This document shows, one piece after another, positions 27,107-31,617 of a DNA stretch of 41,630 nt (position 1 is its first letter; each line of letters begins with the position of its first letter). The position numbers and the translations under genes were made by a program. The DNA comes from an uncultured Chromatiales bacterium. GTDB taxonomy: Bacteria > Pseudomonadota > Gammaproteobacteria > JACKNK01 > CAYPEH01. Location: contig CAYPEH010000001.1 in NCBI GenBank assembly GCA_964409585.1, positions 1 to 41,630 of the forward strand, read 5' to 3'. The notes beneath the pieces were generated by a model. It saw only the letters and a list, made by a program, of their open reading frames with translations. It was not told the DNA's origin and ran no database searches.

Positions 27107-27463
27107 GGTGGGAGTCGGCCTGTAAGCCGGGTTCTGTCGAGGGCAGCCATTCATCTGGGACACGCGTCACCGCGTGCCTCAAGCAACCTACCCGGGTGCG
27201 ATGCGGGCCACATCATTGCACCCCTATTTGGTCTTGCTCCGAGTGAGGTTTACCGTGCCGCGGAATGTTGCCACCCGCGCGGTGCGCTCTTACCGCACCT
27301 TTTCACCCTTGCCTGTGCCGGCGAACCGGCCATCGGCGGTCTGTTTTCTGTGGCACTGTCTGTAGGCTCACGCCCCCCAGGCGTTACCTGGCACTCCGCC
27401 CTATGGAGCCCGGACTTTCCTCCATGCCCTCGCGGGCACAGCGACTGCCTGGCCGACTCCCAC
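27107..27463 (-). ncRNA. rnpB: RNase P RNA, bacterial type A
   Basis: The minus strand contains GGAAAGTCCGGGCTCCATAGGGC...GCCAGGTAACGCCTGGGGGG...GGTGAAAAGGTGCGGTAAGAGCGCACCGCGCGG...CACGGTAAAC...GAGCAAGACCAAATAGGGG...ACAGAACCCGGCTTACAGGCCGACTCCCACC, collinear with E. coli M1 RNA. P1 pairs GGGAGTCGGCC with GGCCGACTCCC. Ends are accurate to about 5 nt. Confidence 0.95.
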
Positions 27464-27505: not shown

Positions 27506-27592
27506 GCCTGAATCCGTGGGTTCAGAGGGGATGCAGAGCGCAAGCTCTTGATCCGCCTGGCTACAGGAACCTCTGAACCCACGGATTCAGGC
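27506..27592. repeat. 87-nt palindromic element (perfect 23-bp arms) overlapping the yqaA stop codon
   Basis: gcctgaatccgtgggttcagagg (27506-27528) is the exact reverse complement of 27570-27592. The 41-nt loop holds a nested agagc-GCAA-gctct hairpin. It probably acts as the yqaA terminator/stabiliser. Confidence 0.8.
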
Positions 27593-28000
27593 AGAGACCA
27601 ACCACAACAGGGCGGCATAACGCGCCCCCTTGCCGGATGTGATCAGCAACAGGGACAGCCGCCAGTCGATCCGCAGCCAGCCGGCGGCCAGACAGAGCGG
27701 GTCACCGATCAGCGGCAGCCAGGACAACAACAGGGCGGGACTACCCCATCGGCGCAGCCGTTCGACCGCAACACGGTGCTTCTCCCCGGAAAGCCCTCCG
27801 GCCGGATAGCGCCAGGCGATGACCCTTCCGATCAGCCAGGTACTCATGCCGCCCAGGCTATTACCGGCGGTGGCCACCGCCCAAAGGGACAGCCATGTGT
27901 AGTCATCGGCCAGCAGCCAGAGAACGGCCTCGGAACCACCGGGAAAGAGGGTGGAAGAAATAAAGGCGCTGGTGAACAGCGTCCAGAGGCCCGTTGCCAT
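27587..28000 (-). CDS. yqaA: YqaA-family (DedA-superfamily) inner-membrane protein
   Basis: 137 aa. Collinear with E. coli YqaA: LFPGGSEAVL, GNSLGGMSTW, LLLSWLPLIGDPLCLAAGW and GKGARY. A GAGG SD lies 4 nt upstream of the ATG. Confidence 0.88.
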   Translation of the reverse strand: MATGLWTLFTSAFISSTLFPGGSEAVLWLLADDYTWLSLWAVATAGNSLGGMSTWLIGRVIAWRYPAGGLSGEKHRVAVERLRRWGSPALLLSWLPLIGDPLCLAAGWLRIDWRLSLLLITSGKGARYAALLWLVSA

Positions 28001-28025
28001 CGCGCCTCAATCGCCCATTCCCGGC

Positions 28026-30020
28026 TCAACGCCGCAAAGAAACCAAACGCCGACGCAACTGGTCGAACAACCGGGTGAAATGCTGTTGCGCGGTGGTATC
28101 GAATATTTCCGCTGGTCTTTCCCCCATTTGCTGAAGGAATGCACGCGCGGGCTCGGAGCGGTCGAAGTGGATCCGATGGCGGGCCAGGGCCTGCCGGTAA
28201 TGCTCGACGATGTTGCCCGCCGTCTCCGGCTTGCCGAGACGCTTGCGCCCAAGCCGTGATCGATAGGCGGCCAGCACCAGCGCATGGTAGGCGTCCACGC
28301 CCAGCAGGTCTTCGACGCAGGCGGGGTGGGCACCGCTGATATCACCATAGGAACACAGGCGGTCCTCGCCACGCAGAGCCTCGCGCAACCCGGCCCTTTC
28401 ACTGACATGGCCATTGCCCAGCAGCACCACCAGCCTGCCCGCGCGGGCCGTCAGCAGGGCCCCCGCGTACACCAGCCCATGGGCTCCACCGGCGGGGAAG
28501 ATCTTGACCCCTTCGGGCAGGCCTTTGTCACCGTTGGCATTGAGGTAGTCGGAGGCCGCCTGCAGGAACCACAGTTCCGCCACCTCCTCGACCACCACGT
28601 ACTTGTGATCACCGAACAGGCCGTCGGCTATCTCGTAACCCAAGGCAGTCTGGATGGGGAACAGGGTCTGTTCATCACCGGTGGGCGTGTTGTGCACCAC
28701 GCTGCCGTCCTCCGGAGAGGCGATCACGGTGCGCACGGAATCCAGGTCGCTGGCCGCGATCATGAACGGCGAATGGGTGGCATAGAGAATCTGGTTCTCA
28801 AAGTGGTCCTTGAAATAGCGCAGCATGTCCTGCTGCCCCAGGGCGTGCAGGTGCAGGCCCGGCTCGTCCAGCAGCAGGATGGCGTTCTCCGCCGGGCCGC
28901 CATCGGTATCGGCGGCAAAGGTGACGAACAGGGAGAAGAACCAGCGAAAGCCGCGGCTGCGCTCCTGAAGATTCACTTCCAGGTCATACAGGGCGCCGGG
29001 GTCGGACACCATGGTATCGAAGTGATCGCCGTCAATGCTGAAACGGATCTTCAACGGCCGGTCGCTCCACAGCTCGTGCAGCTTGCGGGTGATGGTGGCA
29101 CTGGCTCGGCTGACGCGCTGCTGACGGCGCGTGTAGTCGTCATCGTTGGCCAGCCTGTCCAGTTCCACCGGGTCCAGCCCGGCCACCTTCATCAACCGCG
29201 CGAACATCCGGTCAGCGGTGGTCTGACGCCCCTCCTGGGTACGGCGGATGAAATCGGGGATGTTCTGCCGCCCTTCCAGGGCGGGCACGTCGCGGATGTA
29301 GACGAATACCGGCAGGCGGCGGATGATCCAGTTGATGGCCTCGATGTGTGCCTTGCCATCGCCCAGCAATTCATCCAACAACTCCCTGATGGCCTCGAGG
29401 CCATTGGCGGCTGAACGTGGCATGCGCACGCCGAGCCCGGACACTTCCTCCTCCAGGGCATATACCGCTTCCCGGACGGCCCCGGCCCAACTGGCGGCCT
29501 GGGTATGATCCTCGCCCAATACGGCCAGGAAATCGTCCAGAGCATTTTCCAGATCCTCGGCATCCTCATCCTCGCGGTCACGGGCCACCGCCCTCAGGGA
29601 GCGCTCGACACGGCGCAGGGCCTTTTCCAGCCGTTCCTGATCCACCACCAGGGGCGGCAGCCCGGGAAACCCCACATAGACCGTCGGTTTGTAGGCACGC
29701 CCGACAGTGATCCGCTCCACGGTGCGCGCCCGCGGAAACAGGCGGGCCAGTTCCTCGCGTTCCTCCTCATCCAGTTCCCAGTGACTTTCCACCACACGCA
29801 GGTCGCGGGAAAACTCGTCAGGATCGTAATCACGGGGAAAATCGGTGATGTCGGACAGTTCACGGATACCACCGGCCGGATTGAGACTCTCCAGGGCACG
29901 CAGCAAATTGGTCTTTCCGCTTTCGTTTCGCCCGACGAGAGCCACGTGCTGCCCCACCTCGATGAGGCCACTGTCGATGATGGAGCGGTAATTTTTGATT
30001 CGGAACTGCGTGAGTCTCAT
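28026..30020 (-). CDS. OLD-family-like ABC-type ATPase with C-terminal TOPRIM_OLD-like domain (candidate defence protein)
   Basis: 664 aa from ATG 30020 (GGAGA 10 nt upstream); the longest ORF starts at TTG 30086. It has FRIKNYRSI, Walker A GRNESGKT (aa 30-37), a ~320-aa acidic helical insert, the signature-like ERSRGFRWFFSL, Walker B ILLLDEPGLHLH (aa 381-392) and the H-loop YATHSPF. The TOPRIM-like part has YVVVEEVAELWFL, FPAGGAHGL, VVLLGNGH (where DxD is expected) and ACVEDLL. Confidence 0.8.
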   Translation of the reverse strand: MRLTQFRIKNYRSIIDSGLIEVGQHVALVGRNESGKTNLLRALESLNPAGGIRELSDITDFPRDYDPDEFSRDLRVVESHWELDEEEREELARLFPRARTVERITVGRAYKPTVYVGFPGLPPLVVDQERLEKALRRVERSLRAVARDREDEDAEDLENALDDFLAVLGEDHTQAASWAGAVREAVYALEEEVSGLGVRMPRSAANGLEAIRELLDELLGDGKAHIEAINWIIRRLPVFVYIRDVPALEGRQNIPDFIRRTQEGRQTTADRMFARLMKVAGLDPVELDRLANDDDYTRRQQRVSRASATITRKLHELWSDRPLKIRFSIDGDHFDTMVSDPGALYDLEVNLQERSRGFRWFFSLFVTFAADTDGGPAENAILLLDEPGLHLHALGQQDMLRYFKDHFENQILYATHSPFMIAASDLDSVRTVIASPEDGSVVHNTPTGDEQTLFPIQTALGYEIADGLFGDHKYVVVEEVAELWFLQAASDYLNANGDKGLPEGVKIFPAGGAHGLVYAGALLTARAGRLVVLLGNGHVSERAGLREALRGEDRLCSYGDISGAHPACVEDLLGVDAYHALVLAAYRSRLGRKRLGKPETAGNIVEHYRQALARHRIHFDRSEPARAFLQQMGERPAEIFDTTAQQHFTRLFDQLRRRLVSLRR

Positions 30021-30118
30021 CTGTTGTACGTCTCCGGAACCACCGGTCCAGCCGGGCATCCGGGCTATCGGAGCGCCGCCCTGCAAAGACGGCAGCTCGA
30101 TCCTTTGGGGTCAACCAT

Positions 30119-30146
30119 GGAAAACGGCCCTGGTAATGCCAGGGCC
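30119..30146 (-). terminator. Rho-independent terminator (minus strand), ~230 nt downstream of adk and ~100 nt upstream of the ATPase gene
   Basis: The minus strand reads GGCCCTGG-catta-CCAGGGCC followed by GTTTTCC. Confidence 0.6.
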
Positions 30147-30213
30147 GAATACTCTCTATGTACGGGAGGCCTTTTTCTTTTTCGCTCCGGCCTTTCTCTT
30201 CGATTTGACCTTA

Positions 30214-30374
30214 GAGCCTGTCGGACTCAGGGGGATCGTAGCGAAAAAGTGGGACAGCGAGGATGATTTTTCATGATTTTGAGGAGCATGGTGGGAACCA
30301 TGTGACGAAAAATCAGGGAAAATCAGACCGCTGTCCCGCTTTTGCAGCCGATCCAGCCTGAGGCCGACAGGCTC
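30214..30374. repeat. 161-nt imperfect palindrome (MITE/ERIC-like) immediately 3' of adk
   Basis: Arm ends gagcctgtcggactcagg (30214-30231) and cctgaggccgacaggctc (30357-30374) match 17/18. Nested pairs include gggacagcg/cgctgtccc and tgatttt x2 / aaaatca x2, with a central catggt-ggga-accatg. The two ~80-nt arms pair over most of their length. Confidence 0.75.
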
Positions 30375-30375
30375 C

Positions 30376-31059
30376 TTACTTCTTGCTTGCCGCCGCCCGC
30401 TTCACGGCAGCCATCTGTTCGTCGACCAGCTTGCAGATCCCGGCGAAGATGTCATCGATGTCACCGATGCCCTGGACCTCCTTCAGCTTGCCCTGGGACC
30501 GGTAATAATCGATCAGGGGAGCGGTCTGATCCCGATAGACGGCCAGACGGTTGCGGATGGTCTCTTCATTGTCATCGGACCGCTGCACGACATCACCGCC
30601 GCACTTGTCGCAGATGCCATCCACGGCAGGGGGCGAGGTATAGACGTTGTACATCTGCCCGCAATCCTTGCAGGTCCGGCGACCGGTCAAGCGCTGCATG
30701 AGCACATCGAAATCCACATCGATCAACAGGGCGAGGTCGATGGGCTGTTCGAGTTCATCGAGAAGGCTGTCCAGGGACTCAGCCTGGCCGGTGTTACGAG
30801 GGAAACCGTCAAGGATGCAGCCGGCCTGGGCGTCGGCCTCGCCGAGGCGTTCACGGATCATGGCGAGAACCAGTTCGTCGGAGACCAGACGCCCCGCATC
30901 CATGGCCTCTTTGGCCTGGCGGCCAAGATCTGTTCCGGCCGCCACTTGGGCCCTGAGCAAGTCTCCGGTGGAAATCTGTGGAATATGGTAACGATCGACC
31001 AGCCGTTTGGCCTGCGTACCCTTGCCGGAACCCGGTGCCCCAAGCAGTACGATTCTCAT
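30376..31059 (-). CDS. adk: adenylate kinase
   Basis: 227 aa. MRIVLLGAPGSGKGTQA P-loop and ILDGFPRN. The lid carries CKDCG...CDKCGG (a four-Cys arrangement). Confidence 0.97.
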   Translation of the reverse strand: MRIVLLGAPGSGKGTQAKRLVDRYHIPQISTGDLLRAQVAAGTDLGRQAKEAMDAGRLVSDELVLAMIRERLGEADAQAGCILDGFPRNTGQAESLDSLLDELEQPIDLALLIDVDFDVLMQRLTGRRTCKDCGQMYNVYTSPPAVDGICDKCGGDVVQRSDDNEETIRNRLAVYRDQTAPLIDYYRSQGKLKEVQGIGDIDDIFAGICKLVDEQMAAVKRAAASKK

Positions 31060-31263: not shown

Positions 31264-31617
31264 ATGATCGACACCATTCCCGACTTTACCGACAGCGAAC
31301 ACTGGGTGGTCCAGACCACCCTGCGCGAGCGTTATGGCCGCAAGGTGGATCTGGCGGAAGTGGAAACGGAAATGCGCCTGAGCCCCTATTCCACGGAGCT
31401 GACACCCTGCCCCGGCCTCTACTGGAAGGACAAGGACTGTAGTTTCATCGTCGTCAAGGTCGGCGAAAAACGCTTCCGCGGACAGTTCTTCTACCGCGTG
31501 CATCAGCAGTACGGCACCGGCAAGAGCGAGTACGATGACCTCGGCGACTGTGTGATCAGCCTGCTACAGGTTCAGGCCGACCACGAAGCGAAAAAGAACA
31601 AGGAGACCTCCGGATGA
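31264..31617 (+). CDS. hypothetical protein (117 aa)
   Basis: ORF 31126..31617. ATG 31264 is preferred because the upstream part is a Pro/Leu/Ser-rich extension into the adk promoter region. No strong SD and no recognised family. Codon usage looks coding. Confidence 0.5.
   Translation: MIDTIPDFTDSEHWVVQTTLRERYGRKVDLAEVETEMRLSPYSTELTPCPGLYWKDKDCSFIVVKVGEKRFRGQFFYRVHQQYGTGKSEYDDLGDCVISLLQVQADHEAKKNKETSG

Follow-up and report, generated by a model that had tools for sequence, protein, structure and literature searches.

Between adk and rnpB, a contig of an uncultured Chromatiales bacterium carries a gene for a 664-amino acid (aa) protein that joins an ABC-type ATPase to a TOPRIM-derived C-terminal domain. 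The stretch analysed (CAYPEH010000001.1, positions 1 to 41,630; 41,630 nt, hereafter the window) is a metagenome contig, which JGI lists as Ga0256915_100194 in 3300023503, and its host is a gammaproteobacterium of ~63% GC. On balance we read this gene as encoding a stand-alone, Class-1-type member of the OLD family that has long been resident at its locus, that has kept its ATPase while cleavage has been reduced or lost, and to which the adjoining yqaA gene is a mere neighbour. As judged from its residues, it would be a nuclease-site-degenerate variant of a Class-1-type OLD protein with a putative role in defence. The OLD paradigm is an ATPase sensor combined with a TOPRIM nuclease effector; here the sensor is under selection and the metal-A site of the effector is gone, and the role of an OLD ATPase that lacks its nuclease becomes a question in itself. 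An earlier note on this DNA had proposed a candidate defence module inserted between adk and rnpB, either a single gene (class-1-OLD-like or merged-PARIS-like) or an ATPase with YqaA as its membrane partner, and had called for profile searches, a structure prediction with fold search, and checks of presence or absence at the locus and of co-occurrence with yqaA. The features that carry our reading are as follows.

28026 to 30020, minus strand: OLD-family ATPase/TOPRIM-derived gene, 664 aa (open reading frame (ORF) list, family alignment, Pfam AAA_15/AAA_21)
28026 to 28028, minus strand: stop codon of this gene (ORF list)
29910 to 29933, minus strand: Walker A, G30-RNESGK36-T37 (GRNESGKT), invariant in 31 sequences and intact in 124 representatives
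29316 to 29660, minus strand: helical insert, residues 121-235, four long helices with a net charge of -11 (AlphaFold2 (AF2) model)
28857 to 28877, minus strand: Walker B and start of the D-loop, L382-LLDEPG388 (D385/E386), invariant
28221 to 28685, minus strand: TOPRIM-derived domain, residues 446-600, beta-alpha-beta-alpha-beta-alpha-beta (family profile against 6p74, secondary structure)
28587 to 28589, minus strand: E478, the retained TOPRIM glutamate (E377 of Thermus scotoductus (Ts) OLD; family alignment)
28410 to 28418, minus strand: G535-N536-G537, in place of the family pattern D-x-[DE] (metal-A ligands D431/D433 in Ts OLD; family alignment)

Family assignment and domain structure

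The 664-aa product described previously is borne out, as an alignment with 30 homologues begins at the ATG at 30020 (M1); a longer reading (28026-30086, minus strand) from an upstream in-frame TTG at 30086 is unsupported by homologues. The identical 664-aa protein is present on four independent contigs or assemblies. It is a full-length member of its family, with 40-46% identity over 99-100% of the length, and the family comprises 1696 matches in the 90%-clustered database and 6379 representatives at 50% clustering, 686 of which have E<=1e-30. The best match in the homologue search is only 46% identical because the protein's own 90% cluster was not returned, being represented by a 51-aa fragment that hides it from clustered searches. 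JGI wrongly labels the window protein and several of its relatives 'energy-coupling factor transporter ATP-binding protein EcfA2'.

When the PDB was searched with the family profile, Ts OLD (6p74) ranked first (1.2e-13), and the window sequence alone gave 1.8e-5. The alignment of the profile with 6p74 runs from Walker B through the TOPRIM domain and includes E377...D431-x-D433, the family 'VVEGvtD' corresponding to Ts OLD 'LVEGygD' (E377, D381) and the family 'LLDxE' to Ts OLD 'VHDED' (D431, D433). Canonical members are matched best in PADLOC by the 'Old' model (71-98 bits, Walker B to TOPRIM). Matches of the window protein in PADLOC and NCBIfam are weak, confined to the ATPase ends and far below curated cut-offs (AriA, Old, GajA and PtuA), with AriA at the top in PADLOC (5.9e-18) and Old reaching 61 bits via the ATPase ends. 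Sequence comparison places the family within OLD as a clade yet to be characterised, with the single-gene architecture of the Class 1 type, which fits the observation of Yang et al. (PMC12796447) that many OLD clades are uncharacterised.

The N-terminal part is an ABC-type ATPase complete with Walker A, a signature-like motif (N350..R354-S355-x-G357), Walker B, D-loop and H-loop (THSP at 415-418). These motifs had been picked out in the earlier note, and in the family alignment they are invariant or nearly so. Pfam finds AAA_15 (4.8e-16) and AAA_21 (8.6e-12) in the 664-aa protein and nothing else, both being models that had been named for this check. An acidic helical insert of ~320 aa had also been described; its helical and acidic character stands but its size does not, since ~313 aa span the distance from Walker A to the signature motif and the coiled-coil-like insert proper takes up only ~115 of these (residues 121-235, with helices at 128-147, 151-168, 175-195 and 202-235 in the AF2 model), all of the remainder being ATPase lobe. 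OLD ATPases dimerise via their insert (PMC7049728), and by its position the insert of the window protein is probably equivalent to this dimerisation domain, with a corresponding role. The full-length AF2 model (predicted local distance difference test (pLDDT) 86.8) consists of an ABC head split by the insert, a beta-alpha-beta-alpha-beta-alpha-beta domain and a helical tail, and its Foldseek matches in the PDB are PtuA (top), Ts OLD 6p74 (E 3e-11) and GajA, followed by SMC/Rad50 heads. Searches with the family profile and the full-length fold support the proposed combination of ABC-ATPase and TOPRIM in the form of an OLD-family ABC-ATPase plus TOPRIM-derived protein, the homology of the C-terminal domain being transitive.

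As expected of a Class 1 OLD, the gene stands alone, with no conserved partner: across the 80 genome loci compared, the neighbours are different in almost every case, and its clade-mates vary in their downstream genes. The other OLD classes and related systems were considered and rejected. Gene calls around the locus include no UvrD/PcrA/Rep-like helicase (GajB) as required for Gabija (Class 2 OLD) and no reverse transcriptase gene as in Class 3 OLD/retron I-B, for which the NCBIfam retron Eco8 effector model scores 25 bits against a cut-off of 250 and Rfam shows no msr/msd ncRNA, rnpB being its one match in the window. Septu and retron I-A PtuA are likewise discounted, with no HNH gene (PtuB) nearby and an NCBIfam PtuA score of 33 bits against a cut-off of 500. 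For Class 4 OLD/PARIS, split or merged, Pfam finds no DUF4435 and the PADLOC match to AriAB is limited to the surroundings of Walker B (residues 377-429); with neither a DUF4435 nor an AriB signal in Pfam or PADLOC, the merged-PARIS-like option was dropped.

Degeneration of the TOPRIM metal site

In Ts OLD, metal A is bound by E377/D431/D433 and metal B by D381/S478/E480 (PMC7049728). Some 100 of 120 close homologues of the window protein share the pattern E...D...D-x-E...ED. The window protein retains the glutamate (E478) and has lost two of the three metal-A ligands (D431 to G535 and D433 to G537). Behind E478 come E479, where the family has Gly, and E482, which takes the place of the family Asp (Ts OLD D381). 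In its metal-B region, C568-V-E570-D571, the family Asp at 568 is replaced by Cys while E570/D571 are kept. The catalytic set of OLD nucleases (the Glu E377, D381, the DxD D431/D433 and the metal-B pair S478/E480 in Ts numbering) is therefore incomplete. Loss of both DxD aspartates in the family alignment against Ts OLD counts against a working class-1 nuclease as previously envisaged, and E478, the mutation target then proposed, is a residue of a site already without two ligands. Toxicity of P2 Old needs TOPRIM acidic residues, as does defence by Vibrio cholerae (Vc) OLD (PMC12392090). The triple metal-A mutant of Ts OLD has activity reduced 12-15-fold, and the D431A/D433A/S478A/E480A mutant is dead (PMC7049728).

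The degenerate domain escapes direct detection. When isolated, the window C-terminal domain matches no Pfam family, and PF20469 (OLD-like_TOPRIM), which matches 22 of 37 relatives, detects neither the window copy nor any other degenerate lineage (the P0006 and P0001 groups). A domain-only AF2 model (residues 445-664, pLDDT 88) has no PDB match with E<=1e-3, yielding generic Rossmann-like folds with 6p74 in 12th place (E 0.11). The window domain aligns full-length with the domain of its relatives. Of the C-terminal TOPRIM_OLD-like domain described in the earlier note, a TOPRIM derivation is probable by way of the relatives, but the domain is unrecognisable alone and its DxD is GNG. AF2 confidence for the protein is lowest in the TOPRIM region (65-72). 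TOPRIM identity between the window protein and any relative is 32-37%, compared with 60-64% for canonical pairs of similar overall distance, and identity in the ATPase halves is 53-64%.

This divergence is not decay. Between the P0006 and P0033 loci (L003 and L087), the proportion of nonsynonymous differences (pN) ranges from 0.11 (ATPase) to 0.16 (TOPRIM) against a synonymous proportion (pS) of ~0.76-0.82, giving pN/pS of ~0.2 in every domain; synonymous sites are saturated and pN and pS are therefore reported instead of dN/dS. All domains are under purifying selection, and the TOPRIM domain is not decaying.

Degeneration extends beyond the window. The P0006 group reads 'VVVEE...LLLNG' and the P0001 group 'MVAS...LVNDCE', the TOPRIM glutamate itself being lost in the latter, such that all three lineages of the subclade (window, P0006 group and P0001 group) are without some metal-A ligands. 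A census of 124 full-length 50%-identity representatives found the metal-A set intact in 63%, the D431 equivalent lost in ~20% and the Walker motifs essentially always intact, indicating that nuclease-site loss is recurrent in the superfamily. The occurrence of DxD loss in about one fifth of the nearest representative clusters, with the ATPase kept, may point to a recurrent and unrecognised functional class of predicted 'nuclease-dead OLD' proteins. Among the representatives without the first DxD aspartate (P0373-P0519) is a separate 'EDGR' group, 715-916 aa long and carrying additional sequence at the C-terminus. Other degenerate groups are those of P0064, P0057 and P0116; the locus contexts compared are those of the window, P0006, P0001 and P0033 lineages.

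Locus history and distribution of the family

On the minus strand, the ORF list and gene calls give the order adk, 664-aa ORF, 137-aa ORF, rnpB, then mraZ and the dcw cluster. The genes that define the locus are listed here.

30376 to 31059, minus strand: adk, conserved upstream anchor gene (ORF list, gene calls, locus comparison)
27587 to 28000, minus strand: yqaA (DedA/VTT superfamily, 137 aa; weak Pfam VTT_dom match, similarity to named YqaA)
27107 to 27460, minus strand: rnpB (RNase P RNA), downstream boundary (Rfam RNaseP_bact_a, 331 bits)
31264 to 31617, plus strand: P117, a 117-aa conserved hypothetical protein, first gene of a synteny-anchor module with a pyrophosphate (PPi)-dependent phosphofructokinase (PFK) and an H+-pyrophosphatase (H+-PPase) (gene calls, locus comparison)

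The RNA gene is the sole Rfam match in the window, and the ORF list and Rfam together bear out the placement of the ATPase gene and yqaA between adk and rnpB. For the near locus, the description of the ATPase gene as the only one that is not of housekeeping type is supported.

Neighbor-joining (NJ) trees unite the window protein, the P0006 group and the P0001 group, with bootstrap values of 74% (ATPase-only columns) and 80% (full length); the relatives concerned are sulfur-type Gammaproteobacteria. The exact window arrangement, PFK-P117-adk-ATPase, recurs in the P0001 lineage (L086), and PFK-P117 lies beside the ATPase gene in the P0006 (L003) and P0033 (L087) lineages. Identities to the window in these loci are 86-88% for PFK, 64% for Adk, 51-55% for P117 and 43-47% for the ATPase. 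The P117-PFK-H+-PPase module marks a Chromatiales/Ectothiorhodospiraceae/Thiotrichales-like genome group. A scan of metagenomes with Adk for close relatives was uninformative, as the Adk proteins recovered were at most 71% identical, came mostly from genomes without synteny and were in no case accompanied by the ATPase, and P117 replaced Adk as the anchor for finding relatives. The ATPase gene is absent in four of four related genomes sampled through P117. In L208, L209 and L210 adk occupies the same divergent position to P117-PFK, with other genes downstream and no ATPase, so the presence/absence check called for earlier finds the gene missing downstream of adk in three related genomes with the same anchor. 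The ATPase gene is accessory and dispensable, since genomes that are just as closely related do without it.

The earlier note spoke of a gene 'inserted' between adk and rnpB. If this is read as recent, it does not hold: GC content at third codon positions (GC3) of the ATPase gene is 0.776, its codon usage correlates with that of host (dcw) genes at r = 0.95, gene calls near the window locus include no mobile-element genes, and clade-mates are found at this locus in distant relatives. In its simplest form, the history would be a single old acquisition downstream of adk, then vertical descent with several losses.

The wider family is patchily distributed, with at least 528 genome loci in Alpha-, Beta- and Gammaproteobacteria, Acidobacteriota, Gemmatimonadota, Planctomycetota, Methanospirillum and Thaumarchaeota, and is also found in 37 IMG/VR loci and 88 plasmid records. 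GenBank phages gave one weak match, and the viral link therefore rests on the IMG/VR contigs. On the E. albertii plasmid pEA4_88 (L214) a family member lies between IS481 and IS66, and in L088 a resolvase and an integrase are directly upstream of the family gene. The neighbours in 30 canonical loci are varied and include resolvases, integrases, type II restriction-modification, Eco57I, SIR2, AbiJ, RmrA, PD-Lambda-5 and an STK/PP2C pair; this neighbourhood evidence is qualitative. The wider family resembles mobile defence genes, and the two-metal TOPRIM site is complete in its typical members. The defence link drawn in the earlier note thus fits the wider family, found on plasmids, in proviruses and in defence islands, rather than the adk-linked subclade. 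On pEA4_88, a 160-aa hypothetical gene (L214 5508-5990) ends 10 nt before the canonical member.

Proposed mechanism and alternative explanations

In P2 OLD, the ATPase senses aberrant DNA or single-stranded DNA hairpins, unleashing a TOPRIM tRNase (bioRxiv 10.64898/2026.07.10.737580; PMC7049728). We propose that the window protein goes back to an ancient acquisition of a mobile OLD nuclease of defence type. It would still bind and hydrolyse ATP and would probably recognise nucleic-acid structures in the manner of the ATPase half of P2 OLD, with its own two-metal cleavage strongly reduced or gone. Its output might then take the form of binding or sequestration, or of nicking left over with one metal; the other outputs considered were a decoy role and a Cran1-like host function. 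yqaA would simply be resident next to it and share its transcript by chance.

Several points weigh against this reading. That nuclease activity has been lost is a prediction made from the residues alone, and metal-A triple mutants of Ts OLD still nick (PMC7049728). The extra glutamate E479 ('VVEE') in the window and P0006 lineages might rebuild the metal site, and E570/D571 of the metal-B region are kept in the window copy. The TOPRIM assignment of this copy is transitive, direct Pfam and fold tests being negative or inconclusive. The subclade of window, P0006 and P0001 lineages has only moderate support, from NJ trees with long branches, and a recombination hotspot downstream of adk could give the same pattern of shared locus.

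That the ATPase senses infection and the four-transmembrane (4-TM) YqaA acts as its membrane effector or partner, the two-gene form of the earlier proposal, is in our estimate very unlikely. The spacing is suggestive: yqaA lies on the same strand, begins 25 nt after the ATPase stop and has its own GAGG-type Shine-Dalgarno sequence, all as previously described and confirmed from the ORF list and sequence. No convincing terminator separates the two genes, which together with the short gap makes co-transcription likely, and the ATPase gene and yqaA are probably co-transcribed. The pair recurs with a 42-nt gap in the P0006 lineage (44% identical), and this is its only recurrence. YqaA was found by tblastn (E<=1e-3) in none of the 80 genome loci, the 37 viral loci being outside this test, and does not lie beside the ATPase gene in the P0001 (L086) or P0033 (L087) lineages; adjacency in only two lineages, the window and P0006, is what the co-occurrence check yields and does not bear out a module. 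The 137-aa protein belongs to the YqaA/DedA superfamily by its VTT domain and its similarity to named YqaA, being 60-69% identical to >100 proteins with PF09335, several of them so named, with its own VTT_dom match (1.2e-3) below the curated cut-off (19.7 against 33.9 bits). This family has >5385 homologues; yqaA is a widespread gene of housekeeping type and has no PADLOC match. In three of three sampled relatives (L211, L212 and L213), yqaA is followed by a ~1300-aa DUF3683/FAD-oxidase/Fer4/CCG gene, with which it forms a conserved pair, and no ATPase is nearby, and in L208 the DUF3683 oxidase gene is located a few kb from adk-P117-PFK, so yqaA seems to be part of the ancestral neighbourhood.

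The remaining alternatives concern the ATPase gene itself. It is unlikely, in our view, that the protein is a fully active Class-1 OLD nuclease or tRNase with a rewired metal site, in which E478/E479/E482 and E570/D571 replace the DxD aspartates. Several observations would suit such a protein: E479 replaces the family Gly exactly in DxD-less lineages (window and P0006 group), purifying selection acts on the TOPRIM domain, the gene is an accessory one, its wider family has links to defence islands and Vc OLD tolerates metal-site variation (PMC12392090). However, the P0001 group has lost the glutamate and has no E479, and the three lineages have lost different ligands, a pattern resembling site relaxation; low TOPRIM identity, failure of every TOPRIM model to detect the domain and the lowest AF2 confidence in this region argue in the same direction. 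Recruitment of an OLD-derived ATPase to a domesticated cellular function in chromosome or nucleic-acid maintenance, comparable to archaeal Cran1, is distinctly doubtful. Such a role would not be essential, given the genomes that are equally related and share the anchors but not the gene, and the ATPase (43-47% identity) has diverged much faster than neighbouring PFK (86-88%) and Adk (64%). Cran1 also keeps an active nickase, unlike the window protein. It is nevertheless a stable locus among housekeeping genes, with host-like codon usage and apparent vertical inheritance within the clade, that would be expected from domestication, as would ATPase motifs kept under purifying selection, and there is a precedent for non-defence OLD proteins (PMC12796447). 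Least probable of all is a decaying relic, a former defence gene heading to loss with no present function: while catalytic residues have been lost, the TOPRIM domain diverges fast and related genomes have lost the gene, the ORF is intact and full-length in every lineage, the ATPase motifs are invariant, pN/pS is ~0.2 including TOPRIM, and an identical protein is present in four independent assemblies.

A resident OLD protein with a degenerate nuclease site, our preferred reading, leads to a more specific idea, which we offer tentatively and consider rather unlikely as it stands: the adk-linked subclade may be a domesticated OLD derivative, a non-cleaving ATP-driven sensor with either a host role in genome maintenance or regulation, or a function as a nuclease-free immune sensor or decoy.

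Comparison with known systems

The window protein shares with Class 1 OLD proteins (P2 Old, Ts OLD 6P74 and Vc OLD) a single gene, an ABC ATPase with a helical insert and, by way of its relatives, a C-terminal TOPRIM-type domain. It exceeds them in length by ~80-140 aa, its insert is larger, it ends in an additional helical tail (601-664), and its relationship to them is remote; it has Gly in place of both DxD aspartates and Glu in place of D381, and its gene is chromosomal and syntenic rather than prophage- or island-borne. An ABC-ATPase-with-coiled-coil fold is common to AriA (PARIS) and PtuA (Septu, retron I-A), ATPases that do not cleave alone. Their nuclease is a separate protein (AriB DUF4435 or PtuB HNH), whereas no such partner is present at the window or clade-mate loci and the window protein keeps a fused, degenerate TOPRIM. 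GajA (Gabija, Class 2 OLD) has the same ATPase plus TOPRIM architecture, but PADLOC and fold matches to it are weak and confined to the ATPase ends, and no GajB is nearby. Like the window gene, Cran1 of the Sulfolobales (PMC12796447) is an OLD-family gene at a stable chromosomal place that is vertical within its lineage; in contrast, it is archaeal, essential, order-wide and an active nickase, while the window gene is bacterial and dispensable and has a degenerate metal-A site. The downstream gene is of the same type as E. coli YqaA/DedA, the only oddity being the below-cut-off Pfam score of this copy.

The case also cautions that, when defence genes are annotated by profile, 'OLD-like' genes can be counted as active systems too readily. 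For the window, the corrected annotation is neither EcfA2, nor a two-gene module with yqaA, nor a recent island.

Other features of the locus

Three structured elements flank the ATPase-yqaA pair.

30125 to 30147, minus strand: terminator-like hairpin after adk, ~100 nt upstream of the ATPase start (hairpin scan)
27506 to 27592, no strand assigned: 23-nt perfect inverted repeat with a 41-nt spacer, arms 27506-27528 and 27570-27592 (inverted-repeat scan)
30214 to 30374, no strand assigned: 161-nt nested, near-perfect palindrome directly after the adk stop (inverted-repeat scan, folding)

The hairpin at 30147-30125 (minus strand) has nine pairs, eight of them GC, and agrees with the terminator that had been placed between adk and the pair; both flanking palindromes reported earlier (30214-30374 and 27506-27592) were also recovered by the inverted-repeat scan. 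The inverted repeat at 27506-27592 overlaps the yqaA stop; T-runs follow it on the minus strand, and the 5' end of rnpB comes ~45 nt further downstream. It is probably the operon terminator, insulating rnpB. The palindrome at 30214-30374 folds with a dG of -88.4 kcal/mol (z = -10.6), has no Rfam match in permissive mode and has no second copy within the window. It could be an adk 3' structure, a remnant of a miniature inverted-repeat transposable element or a recombination site. Neither palindrome has an Rfam match or is present in the other loci fetched, where both thus appear unique to this organism, and they are therefore not conserved parts of the system.

The P117-type family (113-124 aa, 229 members) has no Pfam or PADLOC match. 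P117 is directly upstream of the PPi-dependent PFK and H+-PPase in eight of eight loci (window, L003, L086, L087 and L207-L210); it accompanies the PPi-glycolysis module as a tightly linked partner that so far lacks annotation. Adk in the window is short (227 aa), and that in several other loci has a long C-terminal extension (397-454 aa in total; L208 5587-6810, L210 5440-6780, L209 5389-6753 and L086 769-1962), which in L210 and L209 matches the histone-H1-like HC2 family. In L003, the adk position is occupied by a 386-aa AT-hook protein.

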